Shown piece after piece: positions 4,310-47,622 of a stretch of DNA of 50,380 nucleotides (within the stretch, counting starts at the first letter, position 1; each line of letters opens with the position of its first letter). The position numbers and the translations under genes are program-made. The notes below the pieces were generated by a model. That model did no database searches and had not been told where the DNA came from. It saw only the letters and a list, made by a program, of their open reading frames with translations. The stretch comes from Myxococcales bacterium (GTDB lineage Bacteria; Myxococcota_A; UBA9042; JABWCM01; BTVJ01): assembly GCA_045863395.1 (NCBI GenBank), contig BTVJ01000051.1, positions 1-50,380 of the forward strand, read 5' to 3'.

Positions 4310-6961
4310 CTACTTCTCGCAGAGGAACGGGTAGTTGGCGCCGCACCCGGCGTCGTTCCACCGCCCCCCGCTGCACCAGTTGATCAGCGTGCAGTCCTCC
4401 GCCGCGAGCAGGCTGTTGCCGTCGTTCGGCTCCCCGCTGCACCAGGCCGTATAGCTCGCGTTGGATCCGCTGACCCAGGAGAAGTTGCCCTCATTCCAGG
4501 TGCCGCGGTCGTTGAATCCGATCCACGCGGGCCCCGACTCCAGGTCCGTCAACTTCTCGGCGAGGGCGTCCTGCTCGGCCTTGTTGTTGACGGTGGCCAG
4601 GTTGTAGCCCTTGCCCGTGCAGTAGGCCTGCGCCTGCTCCCAGGTTCGTGCGGAGGTGCAGAGGAAGTAGTTGCTGGTGCTCAACGCGAAGGCGTTCTGG
4701 AGCGCGAACACGCAGCCCGACGCCGGGCTGCACGAGTCGACGGTGCACGGGTCCCCGTCGTTGCAGACCTGAACTCCAGCGCCGATGCACTTGCCGTCGA
4801 CGCAGGCGTCCCCGAGGGTGCAGGCGTTCCCGTCATCGCACGTGGTCCCGCCCGGCGTGTGGACGCAGGCCCCGCCCAGGCAGGCGTCCACGGTGCAGCC
4901 GTTTCCGTCGTCGCAGGTCTGGGCTGCGCCGACGCACTTGCCCGCCGCGCACGCATCTCCCTTGGTGCAGGGGTCTCCGTCGTCGCAGGCCGCCGTGTTC
5001 TGCGTGTGCTTGCACCCGGACAGCGGGTCGCACACGTCGTCCGTACAGGGATCGTCGTCGTCGCAGGCGATGGGCGTCCCCTTGCAGACGCCCCCGGTGC
5101 AGATGTCGCCGAAGGTGCAGGCGCTCGCGTCGTCGCAGAGGCTGGTGTTCGGGGTCGCTGCGCAGCCGACCGCCGGATCGCAGTGATCGTCCGTGCACAC
5201 CTTCCCGTCGTCACAGGTCACCGAGGGGCCGCCCACACAGGCGCCGCCGGCGCACGCGTCGCTCTGGGTGCACGCATCGCCATCGTCGCACGCGCCAGGA
5301 ATGGGCGCGTTGGAGCAGCCCACCGTCGGGATGCACAGATCCGCCGTGCAGGGGTTGCCGTCGTCGCAGCCGACCGCCCCGCCCGTGCATGCCCCGCCGC
5401 CGCACGTGTCCCCCGCGGTGCATGGGTCGCCGTCGTCGCAGGGAGCCGAGTTCGGGAGGAACTGGCAATCTCCGCCTGGGTCGCAGCCGTCGTCCGTACA
5501 AGGGTCGTCGTCCGTGCACACCCGCGGCGTCCCAGCGCAACTCCCGGCAGCACAACCGTCGCCGTCGGTGCAGGGGTCACCGTCGTCGCAGGCGCCGCTC
5601 GCGGGCACCGACGTACAGCCGGTGCGTGGATCGCAGCTCTCGTCCGTGCACGGGTTGCCGTCGTCGCACGCCACCGGCGCTCCCATGCAGGCACCCTCGA
5701 CACAGGCATCCCCGGCCGTGCAGGCGTCTCCGTCGTCGCAGGGCTCTCCACTCGCGGGTGTCGCAGAGCACCCCGCCGCCGCGTCGCACTGGTCGTCGGT
5801 GCACGGGTCGCCGTCATCGCACTCGACGGGCACCCCGCCGCACACGCCGCCCGCACAGGCGTCGTCCGCCGTGCAGGCGTCGCCGTCGTCGCAGGGAGCC
5901 GTCGAGAGGCTGTACGCGCACTCGCCGTTCGCGTCGCACCCGTCGTTGGTGCACGGGTCCCCGTCGTCACACCCCAGCGCCTGGCCCAGGCACCCGTCGG
6001 GGCCGCAGACATCGCCGGTGGTGCACGCCTCCCCGTCGTCACAGGGGGCTCCCGTCGGGGAGTGCACGCAGCCCAGACCTGGTGCACAGGAGTCTGCGGT
6101 GCACGGGTCTCCGTCATCGCAGTCGACGGGCTTGCCCGCGCAGGCCCCCCCCGAGCACCACCCTCCGACCGTGCATGGGTCAGGGTCGTCGCACGGCACC
6201 CCGTCATAAGGGTTGTTGAGGCAGCCATCTTTCGGGTTGCAGAAGTCCGTCGTGCAGGCATTGCCATCGTCGCAGTCGACGGGAAGCCATACGCACCCTA
6301 CGCCCTCCTCGCACGCGTCGAGGGTGCAGGCGGTCTCGTCGTCGCAGGGCTCCGCAGGGCTCCAGGTCGCGCAGCCCGACTCCGGGTCCACCTCGCAGAG
6401 CACCATGGAGGGGCCGTTCAGGTCGTCGCAGACAACCGTGCCCTCCTCGCATGCGTCCACGCAGCCGGCGTCCACGGGATCCACCCACCCGTCGTCAGCA
6501 GAGACGTCGCTGGAGTCCGGTCCCTCGCTGGTATCGCCAACCCCGGCGTCGTCACCAGCTTCCACGTCCCCCGCAGTGTCTCCCCCGGTGTCTCCCCAGG
6601 TGTCCTCCACGGGAGCGACATCTGCGCTGCCCGCGTCCGCCACATCGGCCATCCCGTCTGGTACCGGGCCACCGGCGTCGCCGCCAGGGTTCGCCCCCGC
6701 GTCCGTCCCCTGGCCGAGATCTGCTCCGCCTGTGCTGCCTCCGTCGAGCCCCGGCTCGACGCTCGCCGTGTCGGGAGCGCCCCGGCCGCCCCCATCGCTC
6801 GCGCCGCCGGGCTCCGGTACGTCCACGGCGACGAACCCGTCGATGCCGTGGAGCCCCTCGCCCAGGTTGAGTCCCCCGGACACGCCGTCCGCTCCGCAAG
6901 CGACCAGGAGCGCTCCGGCCACCACGCACGCCACACCCCGCACTGCACGTGTACGAGCCAC
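4310..6961 (-). CDS. secreted lipoprotein with ~25 tandem myxobacterial-type Cys-rich repeats and a C-terminal C-type lectin-like domain
   Basis: Candidate GTG start at 6961 has the RBS GGAGG 7 nt upstream and a lipobox signal (VRGVACVVAGALLVACGADG). It is followed by an acidic D/G linker and ~25 repeats of ~27 aa (CDDGDPCTxDxCxxxxGC…). The C-terminal ~125 aa (…WEQAQAYCTGKGYNLATVNNKAEQDALAEKL…PAWIGFNDRGTWNEGNFSWVSGS…WCSGEPND…EDCTLINWCSGGRWNDAGCGANYPFLCEK) match the CTLD signature (WIGxxD…WxDxxC…FxCE). The exact start is uncertain. Confidence 0.7.
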   Translation of the reverse strand: MARTRAVRGVACVVAGALLVACGADGVSGGLNLGEGLHGIDGFVAVDVPEPGGASDGGGRGAPDTASVEPGLDGGSTGGADLGQGTDAGANPGGDAGGPVPDGMADVADAGSADVAPVEDTWGDTGGDTAGDVEAGDDAGVGDTSEGPDSSDVSADDGWVDPVDAGCVDACEEGTVVCDDLNGPSMVLCEVDPESGCATWSPAEPCDDETACTLDACEEGVGCVWLPVDCDDGNACTTDFCNPKDGCLNNPYDGVPCDDPDPCTVGGWCSGGACAGKPVDCDDGDPCTADSCAPGLGCVHSPTGAPCDDGEACTTGDVCGPDGCLGQALGCDDGDPCTNDGCDANGECAYSLSTAPCDDGDACTADDACAGGVCGGVPVECDDGDPCTDDQCDAAAGCSATPASGEPCDDGDACTAGDACVEGACMGAPVACDDGNPCTDESCDPRTGCTSVPASGACDDGDPCTDGDGCAAGSCAGTPRVCTDDDPCTDDGCDPGGDCQFLPNSAPCDDGDPCTAGDTCGGGACTGGAVGCDDGNPCTADLCIPTVGCSNAPIPGACDDGDACTQSDACAGGACVGGPSVTCDDGKVCTDDHCDPAVGCAATPNTSLCDDASACTFGDICTGGVCKGTPIACDDDDPCTDDVCDPLSGCKHTQNTAACDDGDPCTKGDACAAGKCVGAAQTCDDGNGCTVDACLGGACVHTPGGTTCDDGNACTLGDACVDGKCIGAGVQVCNDGDPCTVDSCSPASGCVFALQNAFALSTSNYFLCTSARTWEQAQAYCTGKGYNLATVNNKAEQDALAEKLTDLESGPAWIGFNDRGTWNEGNFSWVSGSNASYTAWCSGEPNDGNSLLAAEDCTLINWCSGGRWNDAGCGANYPFLCEK
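4700..6390. repeat. intragenic tandem repeat array encoding ~27-aa Cys-rich repeats (coding, within CDS 4310..6961)
   Basis: The protein-level motif C-D-D-G-[DN]-x-C-T-x-[DG]-x-C repeats about 25 times. The repeat is related to the array in CDS 35967..40154. Confidence 0.7.
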
Positions 6962-7249
6962 CGTTACACCTCCGACGTTCCGTAGAGCGTACCGCACGGC
7001 AAGTCCTTTCGCCAGCTTGGTTTCTGGGCTGATCGTCACCTTCCCGGGGCGTGCGCTGCCCCGTCCCCGCCTCCCGCCCCCCGCCGACCGACCACCGACC
7101 GTCGCCGACGGTCCGACGTCGCCCCTTTCCGGCGCCTCCCTCCTGGCAGCGCGCGTCAACATGCTGAAACCAAAGGACATCGAGGCGCCCCTGCGCACCT
7201 GCCACGTGCGGCACGGCCCTTGCCCATGTGTCCGGCAGGAGGACACGAA

Positions 7250-7340
7250 CATGAGACTCACGACGCTGATCGAGATGGTGCAGGCGCTGACGGTGGTGGT
7301 GGCAAGCATCCTGGTGGCGGTGAGCGCGGGCCTGCTGTGA
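7250..7340 (+). CDS. candidate small hydrophobic ORF (30 aa) MRLTTLIEMVQALTVVVASILVAVSAGLL
   Basis: ATG is preceded by AGGAGG at an 8-nt spacing. It encodes a single predicted TM helix and lies in the intergenic gap between the Cys-repeat gene start and the histidine kinase gene end. No homology can be asserted. Confidence 0.25.
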
Positions 7341-7362
7341 GGTCGCCCTCCCAGCCAACCGG

Positions 7363-9081
7363 CTACGCTGGCGGCGCTCCGAAGATCTCGTCGAGGCGAG
7401 CAAGGAGCGCCTCGGCAGAGAACGGCTTGGTCAGCACCTTGGGAACCTCGCTCGGCTCCACCCCGAGCTGGAGCAGCGTCTTCCCCGCGTACCCCGAGAT
7501 CAGGATCGTCGGCACGTCCGCCCACGCCTCCCGGAGCTGCCGGAGGAGCGCCGGCCCCGGCATCCCGGGGAGGCTCACGTCGCTGACCACGAGGGACGGC
7601 GGCTCGGGGAGGGCTCTGGTCAGCGCCACTGCCTCCTCTGGGGTCGAGACGTCGATGATCGTGTATCCGGAGGCCACCAGGAGGCGCCGGACCACCATGC
7701 GCACCATCGGCTCGTCCTCCACCAACAGGACGGTGCGCCCGTGGCCGGCCCTCTGGAGTGGCGCAGGCTGCGGCTCGGGAGCATCCAGGCTCGGGACCTC
7801 GACGATGGCCGCAGTGCCCACATCCACCAGGGGCTCCAGGCGGATTGTCCCCCCCATGGACTTCACGATGCCATGGGCCGTAGACAGGCCGAGGCCTGCG
7901 CCCTCGGGAGGCGACTTGGTCGTGAAGTAGGGCTCGAAGACGCGCCGCGCGATCCCCGCGGGGACCCCGACCCCATCGTCTTGCACCCGGAGCTGTGCTC
8001 CCCCTCCCCGCCCCTCGGTGACGGAGACCCGCACGGTCCCGCCATCGTCCCCCAGCGCGTCTCGTGCGTTCATCACGAGGCTCATCACGAGCTGGTCCAG
8101 GTGACCCGGGTTCACCTCGACGAGGGGCACGCTCTCGGCCAGGGAGACCTCGAGCCTCACGCCCTCGCCCACCGCATGCTCCAGCAACGGTTGCAGCGCC
8201 CGCACCGCCCCGCTCATGTCCACGGGCATCGCCACGCCGGTGCGCTCCCGCGAGAACACCATCAGCCGCTGCACCAGCGCCCGGGCCTTGCCTGCCGCCC
8301 GAGCGGCGGCGGCCAGGTCCTCAGCGCGGGGGTCAGCGCCCTCGAGCCCCTGCCGCGCCAGGGCGATGTAGTTGATCACCGCGGAGAGCTGGTTGTTGAA
8401 GTCGTGAGCGATGCCGCCTGCCAGGCGCCCGAGGGACTCCAGGCGCTGGGCCTCGCGCAGCTCCGCCTCCAGGCGCTCCCGCTCCCGCTCGTGGCGCTGA
8501 CGCTCCAGGGCGTGCCCCAGGGTCCCCGCGATCATGGCCAGCACCGCCGTCTCGTCGGTGCGCCACGGGCGCGGCTCGCGCAGGTTGTCGAATCCCACGA
8601 AGCCGAGGAGCCGCCCGCCCAGGAGCACGGGGACGCACGTGGCGCCGCGAATCCCCTGTCGCTCCAGCTCCTGCCGCTCTGGAGACGCATCGGAGGGCAG
8701 GGCCTGCACGTCCTCGATGTGGATGCTCTCGCCCCTCTGGAGGCGACCGGTCCACCACGGGAAGGCATCCACCCGCAGGCCCTGCAGGGTGGGTCGCTCC
8801 GCCTGGACCCCTGGCGCACACCACTCGTGGGTGTTGTCCATGAGCTGCCCCCCGTCGCGCAGCATGAACAGGTAGGCGCGGTCGGCGCCGGTCAGGGCGC
8901 CTGCCAGGGCGAGCACCTCGTCGATCACCGGATCCAAGGCCTCCAAGGGCCCCGCGAACCGCTTGGCGACCCGGATGATCGTTCGCACCGTCTCGGCGCG
9001 CACGGCGTCCGTCACGCCCCTCGAGGCCGCGCTGGCCATCGGGGACCCGCACCTGTCGCAGTCCACCGCTTCCATCACCAT
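7363..9081 (-). CDS. hybrid sensor histidine kinase / response regulator with N-terminal GAF domain
   Basis: Start MVMEAVD has the RBS GGAGGTG. A GAF-like sensory region is followed by an H-box (GIAHDFNNQLSAVINYI), an HATPase_c region (N/G boxes …GAGLGLSTAHGIVKSMGGTIRLE…) and a C-terminal receiver (TVLLVEDEPMVRMVVRR…LVVSDVSLPGMPG…TKPF). Confidence 0.8.
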   Translation of the reverse strand: MVMEAVDCDRCGSPMASAASRGVTDAVRAETVRTIIRVAKRFAGPLEALDPVIDEVLALAGALTGADRAYLFMLRDGGQLMDNTHEWCAPGVQAERPTLQGLRVDAFPWWTGRLQRGESIHIEDVQALPSDASPERQELERQGIRGATCVPVLLGGRLLGFVGFDNLREPRPWRTDETAVLAMIAGTLGHALERQRHERERERLEAELREAQRLESLGRLAGGIAHDFNNQLSAVINYIALARQGLEGADPRAEDLAAAARAAGKARALVQRLMVFSRERTGVAMPVDMSGAVRALQPLLEHAVGEGVRLEVSLAESVPLVEVNPGHLDQLVMSLVMNARDALGDDGGTVRVSVTEGRGGGAQLRVQDDGVGVPAGIARRVFEPYFTTKSPPEGAGLGLSTAHGIVKSMGGTIRLEPLVDVGTAAIVEVPSLDAPEPQPAPLQRAGHGRTVLLVEDEPMVRMVVRRLLVASGYTIIDVSTPEEAVALTRALPEPPSLVVSDVSLPGMPGPALLRQLREAWADVPTILISGYAGKTLLQLGVEPSEVPKVLTKPFSAEALLARLDEIFGAPPA

Positions 9082-34971: not shown

Positions 34972-35964
34972 ATGTCATCGCCATCGGCCCCATCCATGAA
35001 GCACTGGGCGCTACTGCTCGCGGTGGCGGCCGTCGTCGGGGGGCTCGCCGGGTGGCTCGGGAGCCGCGCCGGGCGCACTGAGAGCCCACCGCCGATTCCC
35101 GCTGCGCCGCAGCAGGAGGAACCCGTCTCCGCCCGTCCGACGCCCGCGGTCCAGCCGGCTGTGTCGCGCCAACTCGGCTTGCCTCCTCCCATCGCGCTGC
35201 CTCCTCGTGAGACCCCGCGGCCCAAGGCTGGGGGCCCGGCGCCGCTGCCTGCGGTGCTGCCCAGCGTGACGAGCCAGATCGCAGACTCCACGGCGGACCA
35301 GCGCCTGGCCACCGCCGAGAGCCTCCTGGCCCGGGGCACCCCTGCGGACAAGTGGGACGCAGTCAACGTGCTGGCTGGAACCAAGGACCCTCGGGCCTAC
35401 GACCTCGCGCGCCGCCTCGTGCGGGACAAGGACCTGGACGTCGCCACGGGAGCCGCGCACGTGCTGGCCATGGGACCCGGTCTCGCGGGGGAGGACGTGC
35501 AGGCGCTCAAGGACATGATGGGGGACGCCAGCATCATCGGCGGCGAGCGCGCCGGCTACAACGCGGCGATCATGAGCGCGATGCGCATGGGCAAGGCGCC
35601 GGGGGACCTGATCGCCCACGCCATGAAGGCGCTGGAGTCCGACGCCTCGGAGGTCAGGGGCAGCGTGGTCGCCAACGTCGTGACCTTGCCCTCCGACGCC
35701 GCGGTGCCCGTGCTGGTCAAGGCGCTCTCCGACGCGAACGGCGACGTGGCCAACGGCGCCTGGCTCGCGCTCGTGCACGGCCACGGCGGAGACCCGGAGC
35801 TGGGCAAGGACCCGGCCGCCTGGGCCGCCTGGTGGGAGAAGAACAAAGACAAGCCCACCGCAGACACGAGCGGAGCGGCGCCACCACCACCGGAGGACTT
35901 CGCCCGGCCCGAGGCGCCTCCGCCGGTTCACGTGCCCGCCGATCCCTCCCCCGACGAGGACTGA
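34972..35964 (+). CDS. HEAT/PBS-lyase-type repeat protein with N-terminal membrane anchor and Pro-rich linker
   Basis: A TM helix (MKHWALLLAVAAVVGGLAGWL) is followed by a Pro-rich linker and HEAT-like repeats (DKWDAVNVLAGTKDPRAYDLARRLVRDKDLDVATGAAHVLA…VKALSDANGDVANGAWLALV). The start was chosen at ATG 34972 and an alternative exists at 34996. Confidence 0.5.
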   Translation: MSSPSAPSMKHWALLLAVAAVVGGLAGWLGSRAGRTESPPPIPAAPQQEEPVSARPTPAVQPAVSRQLGLPPPIALPPRETPRPKAGGPAPLPAVLPSVTSQIADSTADQRLATAESLLARGTPADKWDAVNVLAGTKDPRAYDLARRLVRDKDLDVATGAAHVLAMGPGLAGEDVQALKDMMGDASIIGGERAGYNAAIMSAMRMGKAPGDLIAHAMKALESDASEVRGSVVANVVTLPSDAAVPVLVKALSDANGDVANGAWLALVHGHGGDPELGKDPAAWAAWWEKNKDKPTADTSGAAPPPPEDFARPEAPPPVHVPADPSPDED

Positions 35965-35966
35965 CC

Positions 35967-38900
35967 ATGACTTCGACCACTGACGTACTCCCGCACGGAT
36001 ACTCCATCCGGAAGCGTGTGGGGACTACCATCTCCACGCTCCAAATCAGCCCCGCGGCGCTGCGACTGCTCCTGCTGGCCCTGGTGCTCTCCGCTGGTGC
36101 CTGCGTGGACGTGGGTACACCTGGGCCGCTCGGCGGGGTCGATGGGGGCACCACCGATGGAGACTCCGGGGGTGAATCGCCCGACGTGGCCGACACCGGA
36201 ACGACTCACGAGGACGGCGCCGCGGAGGGCGACGGGGCCTCGCCGGACGGGCTTGGTGCCGATTCGGGGGGAGACACTGCGGTGGATGTCACTGAGGGGG
36301 ACTCGATCGACGCGGTCACGGACACGACGGACGGCGGAGGGGATTCGGCAGACGCCGATGGCCAGGACACGCTCGCGGACGCTGGCGGAGACTCGGGGGG
36401 AGACACGGGCGGCGATGTCAGCGAAGATTCGGGAACGGACTCCGGTGATACGGGTGGAGACTCCGGAGAGGACACCGGCGGAGACGCCTCCGCGGACGTC
36501 GGTGCAGACACGGGCGGAGACACGGGCGGAGACACGGGCGGAGACACCGGCGAGGACGTCGCCACAGGCTGCCAGGGCACCTCGGACTGCGACGACGGCG
36601 ACGCCTGCACCGCGGACGACTGCCTCCCTGACGGCACCTGCGCCCACGAGGCGAAGCTCTGTGACGACGGCAACGCCTGCACCGTGAGCGTCTGCAACCC
36701 GATGAGCGGCAACTGCTCCAGCGCGCCCGTGAGCTGCGAAGACGGCGACCCCTGCACCCTGGACGTGTGCTTCGCCGGCATCGGCTGTACCGCGGTGCCC
36801 GCCCCCTGCGACGACGGCGACGCCTGCACAGAGGACGTCTGCACCGCGGGCGCCGGCTGCACGAGCGCCCCCCTCGACTGCGACGACGGCGACGCCTGCA
36901 CCGTGGACTCCTGCGCGCCGGTTGGCGGGTGCGCCAACGTGGCGAAGCCCTGCGGAGGAACGCTCTGCAACCCGAGCACCTGTGATCCCGCCGTCGGCGA
37001 GTGCACGTCTGCGCCCCTCGACTGTGACGACGGCCTCGCGTGCACCGCGGACTCCTGCGACCCCGTGGCCGGCTGCATCAACGCCCCCCTGCCCTGCGCG
37101 AGCAACGATCCGTGCGTGACGGGCGCATGTGAGGAGCCGGCAGGGTGCGTCTTCGTGGAGGCGAGCTGCGGTGACGGGGGCGCGTGCGTGGCCATGGCGT
37201 GCGATCCGGCCAAGGGCTGCGTGTCCGCGCCGCTGGACTGCGGCGACGGCGACCCCTGCACCTGGGACGCATGCACCCCGGGCGTGGGGTGCGACTATGT
37301 GCCGAACCCCGACTGCAAGGGGTGCGTGAGCGCCGCGGAGTGCAGCGACGGCGACCCCTGCACCACCGACGCGTGCAATGACGGCCAGTGCGGCCACTCG
37401 TCCCTCGTCTGCGACGATGGTGACGCCTGCACGGCGGACGCGTGCAAGCCTGGCGTCGGGTGTACGGCGGTCGCGATCCCCTGCGACGACGGCGACGCCT
37501 GCACTGCGGACTCCTGCGACCCGGCGACGGGGATCTGCCAGCACACCGAGTCACCCTGCGACGACGGGGACGCCTGCACGGAGGACGGCTGCAACGCGCT
37601 GACGGGCACGTGCAGCCACGGGGCCGTCGCGTGCTTCGACGGCAGCCCCTGCACGACTGACGCCTGCGCAGGCGGGGCGTGCGTGTTCACGCCCGTGCCG
37701 TGCGAGGATGGGAACGTCTGCACCACGGACTCCTGCCACCCGTCCATCGGGTGCATCCACGCGCCGTCCGGGTGCGACGACGGGAACGCCTGCACCGCCG
37801 ACTCCTGCGACCCGCCGACCGGGTGCAAGCACGCGGCGGTGACGTGCAACGATGGGGACGCCTGTACCGTCGACTCCTGCCTGCCCGGCGCCGGATGCGC
37901 CTTCGCGCCCAAGGACTGCGACGACGGCGACGCCTGCACGGAGGACGGGTGCGCGGCGGGGGCCTGCACGCACGCCCCGTCCGCGCAGTGTGACGACGGC
38001 AGCGTCTGCACGCTCGACGTGTGCGACGCCCTCGCCGGGTGTACCTGGTCGCCGATCCCCTGCCCGTCCGTGGGCTGCGCCACGCAGATCTGCGACCCGG
38101 TGGACGGGTGTGTCGCCGCTCCCTCCCTCTGCGACGACGGGGACGCCTGCACCCAGGACGCCTGCGTGGGGTCCACCTGCCAGCACACGGCGACCACGTG
38201 CAACGACGGCGATGTGTGTACCGACGACCTGTGCGACCCCAAGACGGGCGCCTGCGTCCAGGTGCCTGTGTTCTGTGACTCGTCTGACCCGTGCATGACC
38301 GGGAGCTGCCTCGGACCCACGACCGGCTGCGTGGAGGCGCCGAAGCTCTGCCCCGGTGCCGACTTCTGCAACGACGCGGTGTGCATCGGGGGGGCGTGCA
38401 CGCTGGTGCCCACGAGCTGCGACGACGGCGACCCTTGCACCGCCGATGCCTGCGGCGCCACGGGCTGCACCCACGCCCCCATCGCGGGGTGCGGCACGTG
38501 CCAGACGGCCGCGGACTGCACGGTGTTGGGGCCCTGCCTCCAGGCGGTCTGCGCGGCGGCGCCCGTCGGCTGCACCTACACCCAGGTCCCCTGCCCCGAC
38601 GCGGGCCCGTGCGTGGAGTCCATCTGCGACCCGGGCTCGGGCTCCTGCGGGTATCAGGCCGGCGGCTGCGACGACGACGACCCGTGCACCACGGACCTGT
38701 GCGCCCCGGACGGGAGCTGCACGCACGCCCCGAAGAGCTGCTCCGACCTGGACCCGTGCTCCCTCGACTTCTGCGACACGGACGGCTCGTGCAAGCACGT
38801 GGCGGGCGCCAACTGCCACGACTGCACCTCGGCGGCCCAGTGCGACGACCAGGACCCGTGCACCGACAACCTGTGCACGGGGGGGCAGTGCACCTTCGCG

Positions 38901-40154
38901 CCCAAGCCCTGCGACGACGGCGACTCCTGCACCGAGGACACGTGCGGGCCTGGCGGGGTCTGCCAGCACGCCGCGTCCCCCAAGTGTGGCGACTGCACGA
39001 GCGCGGCCCAGTGCAGCGACGGGGACGTCTGCACCACGGACGTGTGCGCGAGCGGCAAGTGCGCCTTCCCGCCCGTCGTGTGCGATGACGGCGACGAGTG
39101 TACGGTGGACTCCTGCATGCCCGGCTCTGGCTGCACCTACCTGCCGGCGACGGGCTGCCTCCCCTGCGTCTCGGCGTCGACCTGCGACGACGGCAACCCG
39201 TGCACCATCGACGCCTGCACCGGGGGCTACTGCGCGTTCACCCCGACCCCCTGCAACGACGGCAACCTGTGCACCCTGGACGTCTGCGACCCGTCGTCCG
39301 GGTGCAAGACCCAGGTCATCGACGGGTGCAAGCTGTGCAGCACGGCCGCAGACTGCGACGACCTCACGCTCTGCACCACCGACCTCTGCGTGGGGGGCGT
39401 CTGCAGCAACCCCATCGTGAGCTGTGACGACGGGGACCCGTGCACCTACGACATCTGCGGGGGCGACGGCGTATGCACCTTCCTGGTCGTTCCGAACTGC
39501 GTGCTCTGCGACTCGGCGGCAGACTGCGGCGACGGCAACGCCTGCACGACCGACGTGTGCTTCCAGGGCATCTGCATCCACGACACGGTCTTCTGCGTGG
39601 CCGACAACGGCTGCTTCCTGCCGTCGTGCAACCCGGCGCAGGGCTGCGTCCAGGTACCCATCGACTGCGGCGACGGCGACCCGTGCACGGCGGACACGTG
39701 CAACCCCGCGACCATCCAGTGCGCCCACGCGCCGAAGCCGGGCTGCACCGGGTGCGCGACGGCGGCGGACTGCCAGGACGGCAACTACTGCACGGCGGAC
39801 ACGTGCTCCGCGGGGAGCTGCGCCCACACGCCGATCACGTGCGGCGCCTCGCCGAGCCCGTGCAGCACCCTGATGTGCGACCCGACCATGGGCTGCATCC
39901 AGACGACGAAGTGCGACGACAGCAACCTCTGCACCCTGGATAGTTGCGACCCGATCACCGGGGCCTGCACGTTCACGCCGGTCTCCTGCGGCGGCGACCC
40001 CATCTGCTTCCCCGGCGTGTGCAGCCCCGCGACCGGCTGCACCTACACGCCGAAGTGCGACGACGGCGTCAAGTGCACCAACGACGTCTGCGACTCGGAG
40101 ACCGGGGCCTGCACCTACGAGGAGGTCCCGAACTGCGACGGCGGGACCGATTAG
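35967..40154 (+). CDS. secreted lipoprotein (1395 aa) built from ~45 myxobacterial-type Cys-rich repeats
   Basis: Start ATG 35967. Lipobox (LVLSAGACVDVG). An acidic G/D/T/S-rich linker is followed by continuous repeats (CDDGDACTADDCLPDGTCAHEAKLCDDGNACT…) of the same family as CDS 4310..6961, but with no lectin domain. Confidence 0.75.
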   Translation: MTSTTDVLPHGYSIRKRVGTTISTLQISPAALRLLLLALVLSAGACVDVGTPGPLGGVDGGTTDGDSGGESPDVADTGTTHEDGAAEGDGASPDGLGADSGGDTAVDVTEGDSIDAVTDTTDGGGDSADADGQDTLADAGGDSGGDTGGDVSEDSGTDSGDTGGDSGEDTGGDASADVGADTGGDTGGDTGGDTGEDVATGCQGTSDCDDGDACTADDCLPDGTCAHEAKLCDDGNACTVSVCNPMSGNCSSAPVSCEDGDPCTLDVCFAGIGCTAVPAPCDDGDACTEDVCTAGAGCTSAPLDCDDGDACTVDSCAPVGGCANVAKPCGGTLCNPSTCDPAVGECTSAPLDCDDGLACTADSCDPVAGCINAPLPCASNDPCVTGACEEPAGCVFVEASCGDGGACVAMACDPAKGCVSAPLDCGDGDPCTWDACTPGVGCDYVPNPDCKGCVSAAECSDGDPCTTDACNDGQCGHSSLVCDDGDACTADACKPGVGCTAVAIPCDDGDACTADSCDPATGICQHTESPCDDGDACTEDGCNALTGTCSHGAVACFDGSPCTTDACAGGACVFTPVPCEDGNVCTTDSCHPSIGCIHAPSGCDDGNACTADSCDPPTGCKHAAVTCNDGDACTVDSCLPGAGCAFAPKDCDDGDACTEDGCAAGACTHAPSAQCDDGSVCTLDVCDALAGCTWSPIPCPSVGCATQICDPVDGCVAAPSLCDDGDACTQDACVGSTCQHTATTCNDGDVCTDDLCDPKTGACVQVPVFCDSSDPCMTGSCLGPTTGCVEAPKLCPGADFCNDAVCIGGACTLVPTSCDDGDPCTADACGATGCTHAPIAGCGTCQTAADCTVLGPCLQAVCAAAPVGCTYTQVPCPDAGPCVESICDPGSGSCGYQAGGCDDDDPCTTDLCAPDGSCTHAPKSCSDLDPCSLDFCDTDGSCKHVAGANCHDCTSAAQCDDQDPCTDNLCTGGQCTFAPKPCDDGDSCTEDTCGPGGVCQHAASPKCGDCTSAAQCSDGDVCTTDVCASGKCAFPPVVCDDGDECTVDSCMPGSGCTYLPATGCLPCVSASTCDDGNPCTIDACTGGYCAFTPTPCNDGNLCTLDVCDPSSGCKTQVIDGCKLCSTAADCDDLTLCTTDLCVGGVCSNPIVSCDDGDPCTYDICGGDGVCTFLVVPNCVLCDSAADCGDGNACTTDVCFQGICIHDTVFCVADNGCFLPSCNPAQGCVQVPIDCGDGDPCTADTCNPATIQCAHAPKPGCTGCATAADCQDGNYCTADTCSAGSCAHTPITCGASPSPCSTLMCDPTMGCIQTTKCDDSNLCTLDSCDPITGACTFTPVSCGGDPICFPGVCSPATGCTYTPKCDDGVKCTNDVCDSETGACTYEEVPNCDGGTD
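36585..40110. repeat. intragenic tandem repeat array encoding Cys-rich ~27-aa repeats (coding, within CDS 35967..40154)
   Basis: The motif C-x-D-G-[DN]-x-C-T-x-D-x-C recurs throughout. It is related at protein level, and partly at DNA level, to the 4700..6390 array on the opposite strand. Confidence 0.7.
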
Positions 40155-40262: not shown

Positions 40263-42967
<2,705 letters not shown>

Positions 42968-43451
42968 TCGCCCGTCCCTCCTGGCGGCCCAGGCCGGCGA
43001 CGTGCGCGCCGCCAGGGCGGCGAAGCGCCGGAGCCACCGCGTCCGCAGGCGGTCCACCTGCGGCGACCGGCCGCTGAGCCCCAGCATCACGCGCGGGTCC
43101 TGCGGGCTCCGCGGCTCCCTCATCATCGTCTCGTGCGTCATCATCTCGACCATGGCCCTTCCTCCGTTGGCTGCGGGTTACACACGCAGTGGGGCTACGG
43201 CAAGCGGCGTGCCAGGGACGTTCGCAGAGGCATATCGTTGTAGATTCGGACCATTGCGATTCTGCGCCCGATTCGAGCACGAAGCATCGCAGGAGGAGGG
43301 ATGGCTTCAATTCGCTGTAGTTCCGCAATGTTGTTCCGACATGCTGGAGCCTTCCGACCCCAGGCCACACAGAAACGGCTCGGTTACAACCACACATGGG
43401 GCACGCCGACCCCACTTGCAGGGCGCTCCGGCCTCTGCCAAGGTGCGCGCC

Positions 43452-44102
43452 ATGCGCATCTTCATGCTGCACAAGCCACGCGGCTGCATCACGGCCCGGG
43501 CGGACTTCGCCGGGCGGCCGACCGTCTATGACCACGTGCCGCCGCACTTCCCCCGCCTGCCGCACGTGGGGCGCCTCGACTTCAACACGGAGGGGCTCCT
43601 GCTGTTCACCGACGACGGGCGGCTGGCCCAGGCCCTGGGGAACCCCGGGTTCGCGGGGGTTGCAGAGGAGGTGCCGCCCATCGAGAAGGTCTACCACCTG
43701 AAGGTGCGCGGCGTGCTGGCACCCGACGACGGCCGCATCGGGCTCCTGGGCGAGCCCCTGCGCTTCAACACCGGCCACGTCACGCGACCGGCGCGGGTCC
43801 GTTGGCTCGAGCACCGGTCGCGGGCCACCTGGATCGAGGTCGTGCTTCGGGAGGGGCGCAACCGGCAGATCCGCAGGCTCTGCGACCGAAGCGACCTGCA
43901 GGTGGTCAAGCTGCGCCGGGTGGCCATCGGCCCTGTGGGGTTGGGCGACCTTCCCGCGCGCTGGTGCCGCCAGTTGACCGCCGAGGAGGTCGCCGCCCTC
44001 TACGCCGCCGCAATGCCGGACGACGCTCCGCCGCCCCACGAGCCCTTCGACGACAGCCCGGAGGCCCTGGCGCGGGCGCGCTCTCTCCTGATTGGGACCT
44101 GA
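43452..44102 (+). CDS. RluE/RsuA-family rRNA pseudouridine synthase (no S4 domain)
   Basis: Catalytic motif HVGRLDFNTEGLLLFTDDG. Conserved (KVYHLKVRG…RNRQIRRL). The size (~216 aa) and absence of an S4 domain resemble RluE. An alternative GTG start lies a few codons upstream. Confidence 0.75.
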   Translation: MRIFMLHKPRGCITARADFAGRPTVYDHVPPHFPRLPHVGRLDFNTEGLLLFTDDGRLAQALGNPGFAGVAEEVPPIEKVYHLKVRGVLAPDDGRIGLLGEPLRFNTGHVTRPARVRWLEHRSRATWIEVVLREGRNRQIRRLCDRSDLQVVKLRRVAIGPVGLGDLPARWCRQLTAEEVAALYAAAMPDDAPPPHEPFDDSPEALARARSLLIGT

Positions 44103-44218
44103 CTGGGGAGGCCGCAGGCCGCACGGGGGCGTCCCTGGCGGTGGGTGTGATATCGTGCCAGGTGTGAGAGCCCCCTTCGTGGCGACCGCCCGCGCCGGGC
44201 GTTCCGGGGCCCCGTGAC

Positions 44219-44686
44219 ATGGCCAATGACTACGTGGAGCTGCTCGCCGCGCTGGATGGGATCGCGCAGGACCCGCGCCACCATCCCGAGGGGGACGCCC
44301 TCTTCCACTCCCTGCAGGTCTTCGCTCACGCGCGGTCAGAGACGCGGGACTCCGAGCTCGTGACCGCGGCGCTCCTGCACGACTGCGGCAAAGCGATCCG
44401 CAGCCGAGACCACGACAGGCTTGGCGCAGAGCTCCTGGACGGCCTCGTGTCGCCGCGGGTCGTGTGGCTCGTGCGGCATCACCTGGACCTGCTGCGCGAG
44501 CCGGCGCGGACGCGGCGGCGCCTCCGAGGCACGCCGGAGCTCCGCGATCTGGAGCTGCTGAGGTCATGGGACCTGCGGGGCCGGTCTCCCTGGGCGTCGG
44601 TCTGCTCCATCGAGGAGGCCGCGACGTTCACTTCACTCCCACCGCCCCCCGGTGCGCTCACCGGCCCCTATGACCCCACGCGATGA
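44219..44686 (+). CDS. HD-domain phosphohydrolase-like protein (155 aa)
   Basis: HD motifs (DPRHHPEGDALFHSLQV … LVTAALLHDCGKAI … VRHHLDLL) resemble the HD domain of CCA-adding-enzyme-type proteins. The stop overlaps the next start (ATGA at 44683-44686). Confidence 0.6.
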   Translation: MANDYVELLAALDGIAQDPRHHPEGDALFHSLQVFAHARSETRDSELVTAALLHDCGKAIRSRDHDRLGAELLDGLVSPRVVWLVRHHLDLLREPARTRRRLRGTPELRDLELLRSWDLRGRSPWASVCSIEEAATFTSLPPPPGALTGPYDPTR

Positions 44687-45023
44687 ACCCGGCCGCGACA
44701 ACCGGCTCTGCTTCTGGCCCGATCTCGACCGTCTGACCAGCGACCGTTCCCTGTGGAGCGACGAGGCCCCGCTCAGCGAGGCGCTCCAGCGCGCCCAGGA
44801 CCAGCTCCGGTGCGCGCTTGCCCGGCTGACGCCCAGCCAGCGGGAGGCGGTCGAACTCTTCTACTTCGACGGCCTCTCGGAGGGGCAGATAGGACACCGC
44901 CTCGGCGTGAGCCAACAGACCATCCACCGCCGCATCCACGGCGCCCCGCGCGGCGGGCGGGTGGTGGGGGGGGCGCTGGCGCGGCTCCGGGCCCTCCTCG
45001 GGGAGTGGCGTGGGCGCCCGTGA
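44670..45023 (+). CDS. small sigma-70 region-4-like HTH protein (117 aa)
   Basis: LTPSQREAVELFYFDGLSEGQIGHRLGVSQQTIHRRI matches the region-4 HTH of ECF sigma factors but region 2 is absent. An alternative GTG start lies at 44652. The stop overlaps the next gene start (TGATG at 45021-45025). Confidence 0.45.
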   Translation: MTPRDEPGRDNRLCFWPDLDRLTSDRSLWSDEAPLSEALQRAQDQLRCALARLTPSQREAVELFYFDGLSEGQIGHRLGVSQQTIHRRIHGAPRGGRVVGGALARLRALLGEWRGRP

Positions 45024-45790
45024 TGCGCGCTGACCAGCGCAGGACCTCCATCGCCCGGGAGGCCGCCCGGCTCATGCTGGAGGAGGGCGTGCGGCAGTAC
45101 TTCGACGCGAAGCGCATCGCGGCGCGGCGCCTGCCCGGACAGCGCCGGCAGCGCCGGGACCGGGCCGGGGACCTGCCGTCGAACGGCGAGATCCGGGACG
45201 CGCTCCTCGAGCTGGTCGAGCTGACCGAGGGGTCGAGCCGCGGGCGGCGGCTCTTCGCCATGAGGGTGACCGCCTGGCAGACGATGGGGGCGCTGCTCCC
45301 GTTCCGGCCCCGCTTGATCGGGTCGGTGGCGACCGGGCACGTCCGGCGCGGCAGCGACATCGATCTACACGTCTTCACGGAGTCGGAGCAGACCCTCGAA
45401 GGCTTCCTCTGGAATCTCGGCTGGACCTTCGAGACGAGCCGCGTGAGCGTGCGAAAGGGGGGAGTGATCCGCGAGTTCACGCACGTCCACGTCGATCGGG
45501 GCTTCCCCGTGGAGCTCTCGGTGTACCCGCCCGAGGAGCTGCGCGTCCGCGGCCGCAGCAGCACGGACGGCCGCCCCATCGAGCGGCTGTCGAGGGCGGC
45601 CGTCGAGCGGCTGCTGGTGCGAGACCACCCGACCGAGTGGGCGGCCTGGTGCGGAGGCGCCCCCGGCGACCTGTCAGAGACCGACCTGCCCGACACGTCC
45701 GCGGTGGAGGACCTGCTCGCGCTCGGCGACCCGGACGCTCCGGAAGGGGACGCCGCAGGGCTCTCCGGGCGAGGGGGGCGCCTCATCTGA
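45023..45790 (+). CDS. Pol-beta-superfamily nucleotidyltransferase (minimal NTase, 255 aa)
   Basis: NTase signature GSVATGHVRRGSDIDLHVF (GS-x10-DxD). A candidate third acidic residue lies in THVHVDRGF. A basic N-terminal region precedes the core. Confidence 0.6.
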   Translation: MRADQRRTSIAREAARLMLEEGVRQYFDAKRIAARRLPGQRRQRRDRAGDLPSNGEIRDALLELVELTEGSSRGRRLFAMRVTAWQTMGALLPFRPRLIGSVATGHVRRGSDIDLHVFTESEQTLEGFLWNLGWTFETSRVSVRKGGVIREFTHVHVDRGFPVELSVYPPEELRVRGRSSTDGRPIERLSRAAVERLLVRDHPTEWAAWCGGAPGDLSETDLPDTSAVEDLLALGDPDAPEGDAAGLSGRGGRLI

Positions 45791-45815
45791 GCGCCCGGCG
45801 CCGAGCCACGGGACG

Positions 45816-46396
45816 TCAGGGGGGCGGGCCCTCGGGCGGGAGGTCCTCGTAGACGGGATCCACGGGCAGCTCGATGGAGAGCGCAGAGAGGGGGATCGCC
45901 TGTCCGGCGCCGTGCTCGGTGAGCCGCCACGACCCGTCGGCCAGGAGCTCGTAGTGCTCGATGCGGGCCACATCCTGGCTGACGAGGAGGTAGTGGCGGA
46001 GCGACGGGATGCGCCGGTAGTGGGCAAACCTTCCGCCCCGGTCCCAGGCCTCCGTGTCCGGGGACAGCACCTCGACCAGAAGCGTGGGGTTTGTGACCGC
46101 GTGCCCGTCCTCGGGATCGAGCTGCGGTCGCCCGCACACAACGCTCAGGTCGGGGTAGGTGGCGAGCCCCGTCGCGAGGACGCGCACCTTCAGGTCCGAG
46201 TCGTACGGCCGGCTGGGCGTGTCCCGCAGAGCGCCGCGAAACAGCGCGGTGAGGTTCGTCTTGATCGCGGAGTGCCGGACGCTGCCTCCCGCCATGGCCC
46301 AGGCCGTGCCGCTTGCGAACTCGTGCCGCACCCCGGTGGTGCGCTCGAGCGCGAGGTACTCTGCGTAGCTGATCCCCTTCGTGGCCGGTGCACGCA
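45816..46396 (-). CDS. Uma2-family (DUF820) PD-(D/E)XK putative endonuclease
   Basis: Start MRAPATKGISYAEYLALE has a strong RBS GAGGAGGAGG. Family hallmarks are present (…EFASGTAWAMAGGSVRHSAIKTNL…DLKVRV…PDLSVVC…LLVEVLSPDTEAWDRGGRFAHYRRIPSLRHYLLVSQD…). Confidence 0.7.
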
Positions 46397-46530
46397 TGAC
46401 CTCCTCCTCTGCCGCGCGACGACGGCGTCGGGCACAGTCTACAGCATGACCCGGGAGCCAGACCACGCGCACGGCCCCCTGTAGCCTCGCGCGCCGGATG
46501 GAGCGAGCCGGTTGCCTCCTCTGCCACACC

Positions 46531-46772
46531 CGCGGAGGCATCGTCACGATACCGCGGGGGCATCGACCGGATACCGCGGGGGCATCGTCCCGATACCGCG
46601 GGGGCATCGACCGGATACCGCGGGGGCATCGACCGGATACCGCGGGGGCATCGACCGGATACCGCTGGGGCATCGACCGGATACCGAGGAGGCATCGACC
46701 GGATAGTACTGAGGTATCGACCGAATACTACGCAGGGATTGGGCGGTGACCTCGGAGGCATCCCGCGACCAC
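46531..46772. repeat. tandem direct repeat array: ~11 units of 22 bp (consensus CGCGGGGGCATCGACCGGATAC), 8 near-perfect
   Basis: Read directly from the sequence. Units begin at 46531, 46553, 46575, 46597, 46619, 46641, 46663, 46685 and 46707, then degenerate at 46729 and 46751. There are no unique spacers, so it is not CRISPR. The array lies between the Uma2 gene start and the 3' end of CDS 46842..47264. Confidence 0.9.
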
Positions 46773-46841: not shown

Positions 46842-47264
46842 CTACTTGTACCCGATCCAGGATCGCAGCCCGGAGAAGGCCGTCTCCAGCCCCGCGTCGC
46901 GCTTCGCTTGCGCGTTCACCTGGTCGTTGACTCTGCGGAGCTGGGACGCCGCGTCGGCGTCGAACAGCAGATTGGCCTGCTTCAGAGTCTGCAGCAGCAC
47001 CTCGAGGTCCGAGATCACCTGGTCGATGCCCTCGGCGCGGGCACCTGCCGCGCGGAGCGAGTCGGGAGTCACCCCGGCGGGCGCGGCGAACCGTCCATCG
47101 AGCTTGGACAGCGCGTCTGCGGTAGCCTCGCAAGCAGCTCCGACGCCGCGACGGGCCTTGGGGATCGCGCGCACCTGGTCCACATTCAGCGTCCCGGCCT
47201 CGGGCGGCAGGGCGAGCGCGTCGGGGATGATGATTGTGACGGTACCCTGCTTGATCTCGGGCAT
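46842..47264 (-). CDS. hypothetical protein (140 aa)
   Basis: Start MPEIKQGTVTIII has the RBS AGGAGAGG. The C-terminal half is predicted helical. No family recognised. Confidence 0.5.
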   Translation of the reverse strand: MPEIKQGTVTIIIPDALALPPEAGTLNVDQVRAIPKARRGVGAACEATADALSKLDGRFAAPAGVTPDSLRAAGARAEGIDQVISDLEVLLQTLKQANLLFDADAASQLRRVNDQVNAQAKRDAGLETAFSGLRSWIGYK

Positions 47265-47622
47265 GTGCCTCTCCTGGTGGTGAACGCGGCCATACTGGGC
47301 AGCGACGAACCCCGCCGCCGCCCCCCTGACCACTTGGACCTTGGCAACGCGCCGATGGGGCCACAGAGGCGGGCGCCTGTCAAGGGCGCTCGCGTGCCCG
47401 AGTCGTGGCGCTGGGTGGGGACCCGTCCCTCCGCCGCCCGGCGCCGGGATGGTTGACGGGCCGGAGCGAGGGCAGCACACTTGGCGTCGCTCGCGGCGCC
47501 AGGCGAACCAGAGGTGTGTGACGTCCATCGCCCGGTGCCTCCCCTCGACTCCGGTCGCGGCACACACGGCGCCCCGGTCGCGGGGCGCGACCGACCCCAC
47601 AATTCCGGGAGACACGCCGAAG

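Follow-up and report, generated by a model that had tools for sequence, protein, structure and literature searches.

We analysed a stretch of 50,380 nucleotides from a Myxococcales bacterium (assembly GCA_045863395.1, contig BTVJ01000051.1, positions 1 to 50,380), hereafter called the window, and in particular a cassette of three small overlapping genes on its forward strand. The first gene (44219-44686) encodes a 155-residue HD-domain protein, HD (Pfam HD, E = 4.8e-10); the second (44670-45023) encodes a 117-residue helix-turn-helix protein that consists of sigma-70 region 4 only, sigma4 (Sigma70_r4_2, E = 3.2e-12; Sigma70_r4, E = 4.6e-10); and the third (45023-45790) encodes a 255-residue nucleotidyltransferase (NTase) of the Pol-beta superfamily, NT (NTP_transf_2, 21.8 bits against a cut-off of 21). 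Because the window has a G+C content of 70.5% and carries many overlapping open reading frames (ORFs) on both strands, coding status was judged by codon-position G+C, and the third-position value (GC3), which lies at 0.85-0.97 for each gene in its proper frame, identifies all three as coding. An initial annotation of this DNA had described three overlapping genes of these types, and they are present, all in one direction, where it placed them. Its TGATG junction between sigma4 and NT (45021-45025, a 1-nt overlap) was also correct, but its first junction, an ATGA at 44683-44686, was not: the ATG at 44683 lies in a different frame and opens a short ORF only, whereas the sigma4 ORF begins at the ATG at 44670, so that HD and sigma4 overlap by 17 nt. 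A 98%-identical contig with an independent gene call carries the same three genes with the same overlaps.

Conservation of the HD-NT pair and its fused relatives

A genome scan identified NT relatives in 489 species genomes, mostly of Myxococcota (Polyangia), and 80 loci were retrieved for locus comparison. The NT homologues number more than 1299, at 52-64% identity, with the named ones mostly from Polyangium, Sorangium, Chondromyces, and Minicystis; the named close relatives of the window HD and NT all belong to Myxococcota, beside metagenome-assembled genomes (MAGs) with broader labels. An HD homologue was found by tblastn immediately upstream of NT in 79 of the 80 loci, the sole exception being a locus cut by a contig end, and a sigma4 homologue lies between the two in 64. 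The 13 complete loci without sigma4, in which HD abuts NT, come mainly from Thiomargarita/Beggiatoa-type (Thiotrichales-type) Gammaproteobacteria. When the ORFs of the 80 loci were clustered, NT, HD, and sigma4 were the only conserved ones, and the flanks agreed only within a genus. The fine structure of the operon recurs as well: the sigma4 stop and the NT start overlap by 4 nt in 40 of the 64 loci and by 1 nt in 3, they lie within 17 nt of each other in 63, and in 63 the sigma4 frame runs past the HD stop without interruption. The three ORFs are thus co-conserved. In addition, the pairwise distances among HD and among NT proteins are correlated (r = 0.86), and this correlation, the adjacency, and the Planctomycetota fusions described below bear out the proposal of the initial annotation that NT and HD are linked in function, like the corresponding parts of CCA-adding enzymes and GlnD.

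The trio is ~55-65% identical across Polyangia. Because the operon occupies corresponding (syntenic) chromosomal positions in 15 Sorangium genomes, and because the retrieved loci diverge evenly, occur once per record, and are taxonomically coherent, we conclude that the operon is a self-contained, vertically inherited chromosomal unit and not a mobile immune module. The closest named relative of the window cassette, from Myxococcales MAG AMXMBFR64 (P0002), is an in-frame HD-NT chimera, in which the first ~90 HD residues are joined to NT from about residue 29 (...HDVLG|AKRIAARRL...), so that the C-terminal ligands of HD, all of the sigma4 gene, and the N-terminus of NT are missing; this could be either a real deletion allele of ~620 bp or an assembly artefact.

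Fused relatives were sought by a profile search of 1.84 billion representative proteins. At E <= 1e-10 the search returned 988 relatives, many of them 360-500 residues long, with the NT part N-terminal and, according to Pfam, an HD domain at the C-terminus. Two proteins of ~370 residues, P0260 and P0262, combine the two halves and share 46% and 48% identity with the proteins of the window; in P0262 (370 residues) the N-terminal half is 46% identical to the window NT and residues 222-354 are 48% identical to the window HD. A search with P0262 retrieved 5954 proteins, whose named top matches belong to Planctomycetaceae, Pirellulales, Aeoliella, and Humisphaera. These alignments identify the predicted Myxococcota operon as the split and order-swapped form, HD then NT, of a single NT-HD polypeptide in Planctomycetota, and the existence of such fusions is strong evidence that HD and NT act together. 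The Pirellulales fusion adjoins mdh and a microcompartment locus; the genes are convergent there, and the arrangement is lineage-specific.

Our search also identified a second subfamily of ~460-480 residues (P0275, P0278, and P0293), in which an NT part 42% identical to that of the window is joined to a different HD domain followed by a tail. The HD and tail of the P0275 type match the chains of PDB entries 3wfo-3wfs over residues 252-496 (E = 2.7e-17), deposited as 'Poly A polymerase / tRNA processing enzyme', which we take to be the A. aeolicus CC-adding enzyme. The HD part also matches the HD regions of actinobacterial CCA enzymes and of GlnD (E = 6e-13 for GlnD), and the P0275 tail aligns with that of the CC-adding enzyme, not with ACT domains. 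The members of this sister subfamily derive from metagenome contigs, one of them at positions 6001-7443 of locus L085, and the HD motif appears degenerate in P0272 and P0317.

We considered, and rejected, the possibility allowed for in the initial annotation that the genes are fragments of a broken, pseudogenised CCA-adding or GlnD-like gene. The ORFs are intact, have high GC3, and are widely conserved, their order is the reverse of that in CCA enzymes and GlnD, and fused relatives exist; they are intact genes under selection.

Active sites and structural relatives of NT and HD

The NT protein begins with a four-helix domain (residues 1-90) that contains an invariant DLPSNGEIR at 50-58, followed by a catalytic core with G110-S111, D112, D114, and E164. 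The GS...DxD signature by which the initial annotation recognised a Pol-beta NTase is therefore found, and because D112, D114, and E164 are invariant, the enzyme should be catalytically active. An RSSTDGxPI loop is conserved at 178-186, and the C-terminal tail is disordered. The structure model, with a predicted local distance difference test (pLDDT) score of 84.6, reproduces the four-helix domain and the Pol-beta core. RNA-tailing enzymes head its lists of fold matches, the top ones including 1miv and 3wfs, while MenT1 and CD-NTases are among the distant matches; no solved structure closer to NT than generic Pol-beta cores was found. At the level of sequence profiles, NT matches PF01909 and MNT-type models and not the CCA head. 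The isoelectric point (pI) is 11.1 for the window NT core, 6.0 for the fusion, and 6.2 for the NT of the gammaproteobacterial type, and charge is an ambiguous proxy for RNA binding.

Longer NT homologues were examined as possible sigma4 or HD fusions, and their extra length proved to consist of acidic tails only. Most Polyangia NT proteins (P0010, P0025, P0028, P0088, and P0101 among them) have such a long acidic C-terminal tail, with a D-Y-(D/E)-P-L-P-G-F-E motif conserved near the C-terminus, which looks like a docking peptide. The window NT and the gammaproteobacterial NT proteins are without a long acidic tail.

The HD protein has a complete dimetal site with six ligands (H30, H54-D55, H65, H87/H88, and D118). 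Invariant in its 34 homologues are H22-P-E-G-D26, H30, H54-D55, K58, H65, H87-H88, D90, R115, W117, and D118, which include an HPEGD loop at 22-26, the K58 of an HDxGK motif, and an R115-x-W117-D118 motif. Its N-terminal region, (W/Y)HPExD...H...HDxGK, matches the HD domain of E. coli-type Cca. The six ligands also align with the ligand positions of PhnZ, and among solved structures HD comes closest to the diiron oxygenases PhnZ, TmpB, and MIOX, with tRNA-binding HD domains next (PMC10164559). According to a review, the three known HD oxygenases use an H...HD...H...H...D ligand set (PMC8177086). Against the Phn-HD family (TIGR03276), the window protein scores 29 bits with a cut-off of 214.6, which is ~185 bits short, and no PhnY/TmpA-type hydroxylase or phosphonate gene was found among the neighbours in the 80 loci; on the score and the missing PhnY-like partner we rejected HD as a PhnZ orthologue. 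At the putative YxxE of HD, the aromatic residue is not conserved, being His in the window and Tyr, Phe, or Trp elsewhere. Dinuclear HD hydrolases use the same six ligands, and HDIG hydrolases typically have the HDxGK motif, as does MIOX, whereas PhnZ has a His at the position of the motif's Lys. Phosphohydrolase activity is plausible for HD on the evidence of these residues. The initial annotation had called it a phosphohydrolase that acts as the eraser of an NTase product: the HD domain stands, but hydrolysis and an eraser role were too specific a claim for a protein whose nearest solved relatives are diiron oxygenases.

The sigma4 protein and its upstream box

As the initial annotation had recognised, the second gene encodes sigma-70 region 4 only. 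Region 4 profiles match residues 40-92 of its 117 and region 2 is not matched; TIGR02937, at 41.7 bits, stays just under its cut-off of 42.9 and aligns over positions 105-156 only, so the combination of region 2 and region 4 that marks a full sigma-70 factor was not found. The conserved core of the family reads LT.KQREVVE.YFFEGLSQGEIARRLGV.QQVV.KRL.GA.RGGR.VGGAL.RLR, and no ligand-binding domain was evident in the Pfam scan or the alignment. Its distribution and junctions indicate that sigma4 is an insertion in the operon specific to Myxococcota and translationally coupled to NT. The closest parallel is the SigO-RsoA system of B. subtilis, in which region 4 likewise occurs without region 2 and a specific -35-like element is used (PMC7826278, PMC8103513). 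Unlike that system, no region-2 partner is encoded here, and sigma4 comprises region 4 and a short N-terminal tail.

Upstream of the operon, on the forward strand and 78 nt before the HD start codon, lies a bipartite box that resembles a promoter or operator, GCGGTGGGTGTGA (44138-44169). It contains an invariant 8-mer core, GTGGGTGT (44141-44148), and a second box, GTGTGAG (44162-44168), with the consensus GGGTGAG or GGGT(G/A)AG. The core was identified upstream of HD, on the forward strand, in 62 of 63 sigma4-containing loci, with the second box offset by 21-22 nt (GTGGGTGT-N13-GGGTGAG) and often an A/T-rich stretch just upstream; the start codon follows the box at a distance of 25 to 158 nt, depending on the locus. 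In each ~12.6-kb locus the exact 11-mer is found a single time, at the box only. The box is present in one of the 13 loci without sigma4 (absent from the other 12), and it is absent from the Planctomycetota and second-subfamily fusion loci L081-L085. These counts establish that the sigma4 gene and the putative regulatory box are co-occurring, lineage-specific additions to the pair.

An RNA leader or riboswitch was considered in place of a DNA element and rejected in favour of a promoter or operator: an Rfam scan of 43950-44300 gave chance matches only, and RNAalifold on 30 leaders returned an open chain with no consensus structure. A scan of 43950-46000 for a canonical sigma-70 promoter or an intrinsic terminator found neither. 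The geometry of the box points to a promoter or operator with a -35/-10-like arrangement that does not follow the sigma-70 consensus. Region 4 of sigma factors is the module that reads the -35 element. For this reason, and because the box co-occurs with sigma4, we consider it somewhat more probable than otherwise that sigma4 binds the box and autoregulates the operon; the alternative reader would be a dedicated extracytoplasmic function (ECF) sigma factor encoded elsewhere. The box may mark the sequence that a sigma region 4 protein recognises when it stands alone.

Proposed function, rival explanations and genomic context

Our comparisons demonstrate that HD and NT are an obligate pair, inherited together and in some cases fused, whose two predicted active sites are intact, and we are highly confident that the locus is a split NT-HD enzyme operon and that it is not a defence system. 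In the mechanism that we propose, NT, with its GS...DxD...E set, would transfer a nucleotide from a nucleoside triphosphate (NTP) onto a substrate hydroxyl, and the dimetal HD would act on the substrate of NT, either as a binding 'body' or as a phosphoesterase. This division of labour would be that of the HD-containing class II CCA-adding enzymes, with an RNA (tRNA-like) 3' end as the substrate, and sigma4 bound at the -35-like GTGGGTGT box would provide autoregulation. Since the Planctomycetota and Thiotrichales versions are without sigma4, this protein would stand outside the chemistry. In class II CCA enzymes, the HD domain or body holds the acceptor arm of the tRNA and can remove 2',3'-cyclic or 3'-phosphates, after which the head extends the 3' end. 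An RNA 3' end is favoured because the sister subfamily has a body and tail of the CC-adding type, because the window HD has a Cca-like motif, because tRNA-binding HD domains are its best non-oxygenase folds (PMC10164559), and because RNA-tailing enzymes top the NT fold matches. This choice of substrate nevertheless stays tentative, and the statement as a whole, of a CCA/GlnD-like NT and HD enzyme operon that is autoregulated by sigma4, favours an RNA 3' end, and does not serve defence, has in our judgement slightly less than an even chance of being right in every part. Three observations weigh against an RNA 3' end: the fusion is acidic (pI 6.0), no conserved RNA-metabolism neighbour was found in the 80 loci, and HD is most similar to oxygenases.

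The class II tRNA nucleotidyltransferases (E. coli Cca; 3wfo-3wfs) combine a Pol-beta NTase and an HD domain in one system, as here, and their order of NT then HD is that of the fused relatives P0260 and P0262. In contrast to their PF01743 (PolyA_pol) head and neck, the window NT has no PF01743 match and has a four-helix domain, DLPSNGEIR, and RSSTDGxPI of its own. They also carry the HD body and a tRNA-binding tail on the same polypeptide, whereas the window HD is a separate protein of 155 residues without a tail, and the window genes are split, order-swapped, and interrupted by the sigma4 gene.

GlnD, a single NT-HD enzyme that both writes and erases, offers the other precedent, and its HD domain removes UMP from PII. 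By analogy, NT could add a nucleoside monophosphate (NMP) to a Tyr, Ser, or Thr residue of a protein and HD could remove it, with sigma4 as a possible target or readout in Myxococcota. The order of NT then HD in the fused form is that of GlnD, NT matches PF01909 and MNT-type profiles and not the CCA head, the P0275-type HD matches the GlnD HD region while the window HD gives weak GlnD matches, the fusion is small and has an acidic pI, as would suit an enzyme acting on a protein or small molecule, and sigma4 is coupled translationally to NT. Yet no GlnD_UR_UTase or ACT domains were found in the family, and all GlnD scores fall far under their cut-offs: against TIGR01693 the window HD reaches 16.7 bits out of a required 519, and NT, although of the PF01909 type, has no GlnD match. 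The family has no link to PII or nitrogen genes, no candidate target is conserved nearby in Planctomycetota or Thiotrichales, and the tail of P0275 aligns with a CC-adding enzyme where ACT domains would be expected of a GlnD relative. We regard protein nucleotidylylation as unlikely on this balance. A nucleotide second messenger or alarmone, made by NT and degraded by HD in the manner of RelA/SpoT or of separate small alarmone synthetases and hydrolases (SAS and SAH), with sigma4 as the output in Myxococcota, is very unlikely. NT has the canonical GS...DxD signature of nucleotidyl transfer and no RelA_SpoT synthetase match in Pfam, the window HD scores 12.9 bits against HD_4 with a cut-off of 27.2 (E = 0.096), and the matches are at the generic superfamily level only; no receptor or effector is conserved nearby, and sigma4 is without an evident ligand-binding domain.

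The fold matches of HD raise a different chemistry, in which HD would be a diiron oxygenase of the PhnZ/TmpB/MIOX type, breaking a C-P or C-C bond adjacent to a hydroxyl, while NT activates or tags the same phosphate or phosphonate small molecule. The window HD shares the six-ligand site of the PhnZ-type oxygenases. Its Phn-HD score, the lack of a hydroxylase partner and of any phosphonate context, the variable YxxE aromatic, the HDxGK motif, and the use of the same ligands by dinuclear HD hydrolases all count against this explanation, and HD proteins of the window type, unlike PhnZ, TmpB, and MIOX, are always paired or fused with an NTase. We know of no pathway that pairs a Pol-beta NTase with an HD oxygenase, and we judge the explanation distinctly unlikely. 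In its most far-reaching form, less likely again, HD would be a genuine mixed-valent diiron oxygenase permanently coupled to a Pol-beta NT, fused in Planctomycetota and split in Myxococcota. If this were true, the pair would cleave bonds oxidatively in a substrate that has been nucleotidylated or carries a nucleotide, such as a phosphonate or the cis-diol of a ribose or polyol, a chemistry that to our knowledge no NTase-HD pair performs. It would also extend the set of HD oxygenases, three of which have been characterised (PMC8177086), to a family present in thousands of genomes.

The initial annotation had placed the cassette in a defence-like islet and read it as a toxin-antitoxin (TA) or phage-defence signalling module, which could take the form of a Clover-like pair of a deoxynucleoside triphosphate hydrolase (dNTPase) and an NTase, an AbiE-like pair of a helix-turn-helix protein and an NTase, or an MNT-type system. 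In its favour, the window cassette adjoins a Uma2 gene, a tandem array, and a Type IIG restriction-modification (RM) enzyme, an XhoI RM pair stands beside the genes in L082 and L083, two flank proteins match DrmA/DrmD, MenT1 and CD-NTases appear among the distant fold matches of NT, and Clover is an existing defence pair of an HD protein and an NTase (PMC12265719). We nevertheless consider this reading extremely unlikely, and the islet did not hold up: the trio alone is conserved across loci, and its flanks vary and are mostly housekeeping. PADLOC gave no significant match for HD, sigma4, or NT. The genes on either side of the window cassette, one for a pseudouridine synthase upstream and the Uma2 gene downstream, are not conserved as neighbours across the 80 loci, and the commonest Pfam domains in the flanks are GST, Cys-tRNA synthetase, P450, Hsp33, Ogt, and aldehyde dehydrogenase; in one gammaproteobacterial locus secA is close by. 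Among 118 flank proteins from 32 diverse loci, a sample that does not amount to a rigorous genome-wide statistic, no PADLOC family occurred in more than two proteins; the strongest matches were those to DrmA/DrmD, and there were matches of the Ser/Thr-kinase type too.

The comparison with individual defence systems leads to the same result. Clover is also a two-gene pair of an HD protein and a Pol-beta NTase (CloA dNTPase and CloB) and has also been reported in Myxococcia (PMC12265719), but the dGTPase-family HD dNTPase and the setting in defence islands that characterise it were not found here, and the solved CloA chain has 453 residues. Type VII TA (HepT/MntA) and AbiE systems likewise place a small GS...DxD NTase beside a small partner, which in AbiE includes a helix-turn-helix protein. 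The window NT, however, scores 16.7 bits against the MntA model NF047752 (cut-off 60), its neighbours are HD and sigma4 and not a HEPN protein, the trio has no AbiE-family PADLOC match, and, in contrast to these systems, it is core-like in its conservation and fused in another phylum. Cyclic-oligonucleotide-based antiphage signalling (CBASS) requires a CD-NTase and an effector gene, which the trio does not provide. The initial annotation was therefore right to set the cassette apart from CBASS and the HEPN-MNT families.

We found no curated Pfam or NCBIfam model for the NT-HD family, and no title or abstract addressing it was found in the literature searched. It is a clearly delimited enzyme family of Myxococcota, Planctomycetota, and giant sulfur bacteria, spanning 489 species genomes and thousands of metagenomic proteins, which follows the NT and HD logic of CCA enzymes and GlnD, yet with a different NT head and an oxygenase-like HD. 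Its chemistry could be a new cycle of RNA or protein nucleotidylylation and repair, or something unprecedented. What is new here is a widespread NT-HD enzyme in split form that comes with a predicted sigma4-only regulator and a putative promoter box of its own, and the split and fused pairs, sigma4, and the GTGGGTGT box are direct experimental handles.

The features that the initial annotation described beside the cassette are all real. A Uma2-domain ORF occupies 45816-46673 on the reverse strand (E = 8.6e-30) and reads through the tandem array; its true start is probably near 46397. The array (46530-46705) consists of eight copies of a 22-bp unit, CCGCGGGGGCATCGACCGGATA, with 92% matches, and its stretch, between the Uma2 gene and an ORF without a family match (46842-47387, reverse strand), shows no clear codon-position G+C bias. 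The Type IIG RM fusion enzyme starts at 47623 on the forward strand and is incomplete at the contig end (50380); it carries N6_Mtase with an NPPY motif and Type_ISP_C, and PADLOC identifies it as REase_MTase_IIG (E = 1.3e-66). Because the genes around the operon differ between loci and are for the most part housekeeping genes, the Uma2 gene, the 22-bp array, and the Type IIG enzyme are incidental neighbours of the cassette. In general, RM and Uma2 neighbours in one genome alone are poor grounds for assigning a defence function. A minority of loci do lie beside restriction or defence genes, such as the XhoI RM pair of Pirellulales (L082, 4007-5897; L083, 1743-3495), and Uma2 occurs near the operon in two Myxococcota loci (L059, 6866-7387; L066, 8386-8898); these recurrent neighbours may reflect chance or a local insertion hot spot.

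The window also carries two giant ORFs. The first (35352-40154, forward strand) encodes dozens of Cys-rich 'C..DGD.CT.D.C' repeats, and an NCBIfam scan of it gave no match. The second (40263-44567, reverse strand) encodes 'DCDD.D..(V/I)HPG..E.CNG.DDDC' repeats together with a non-repeat C-terminal region.

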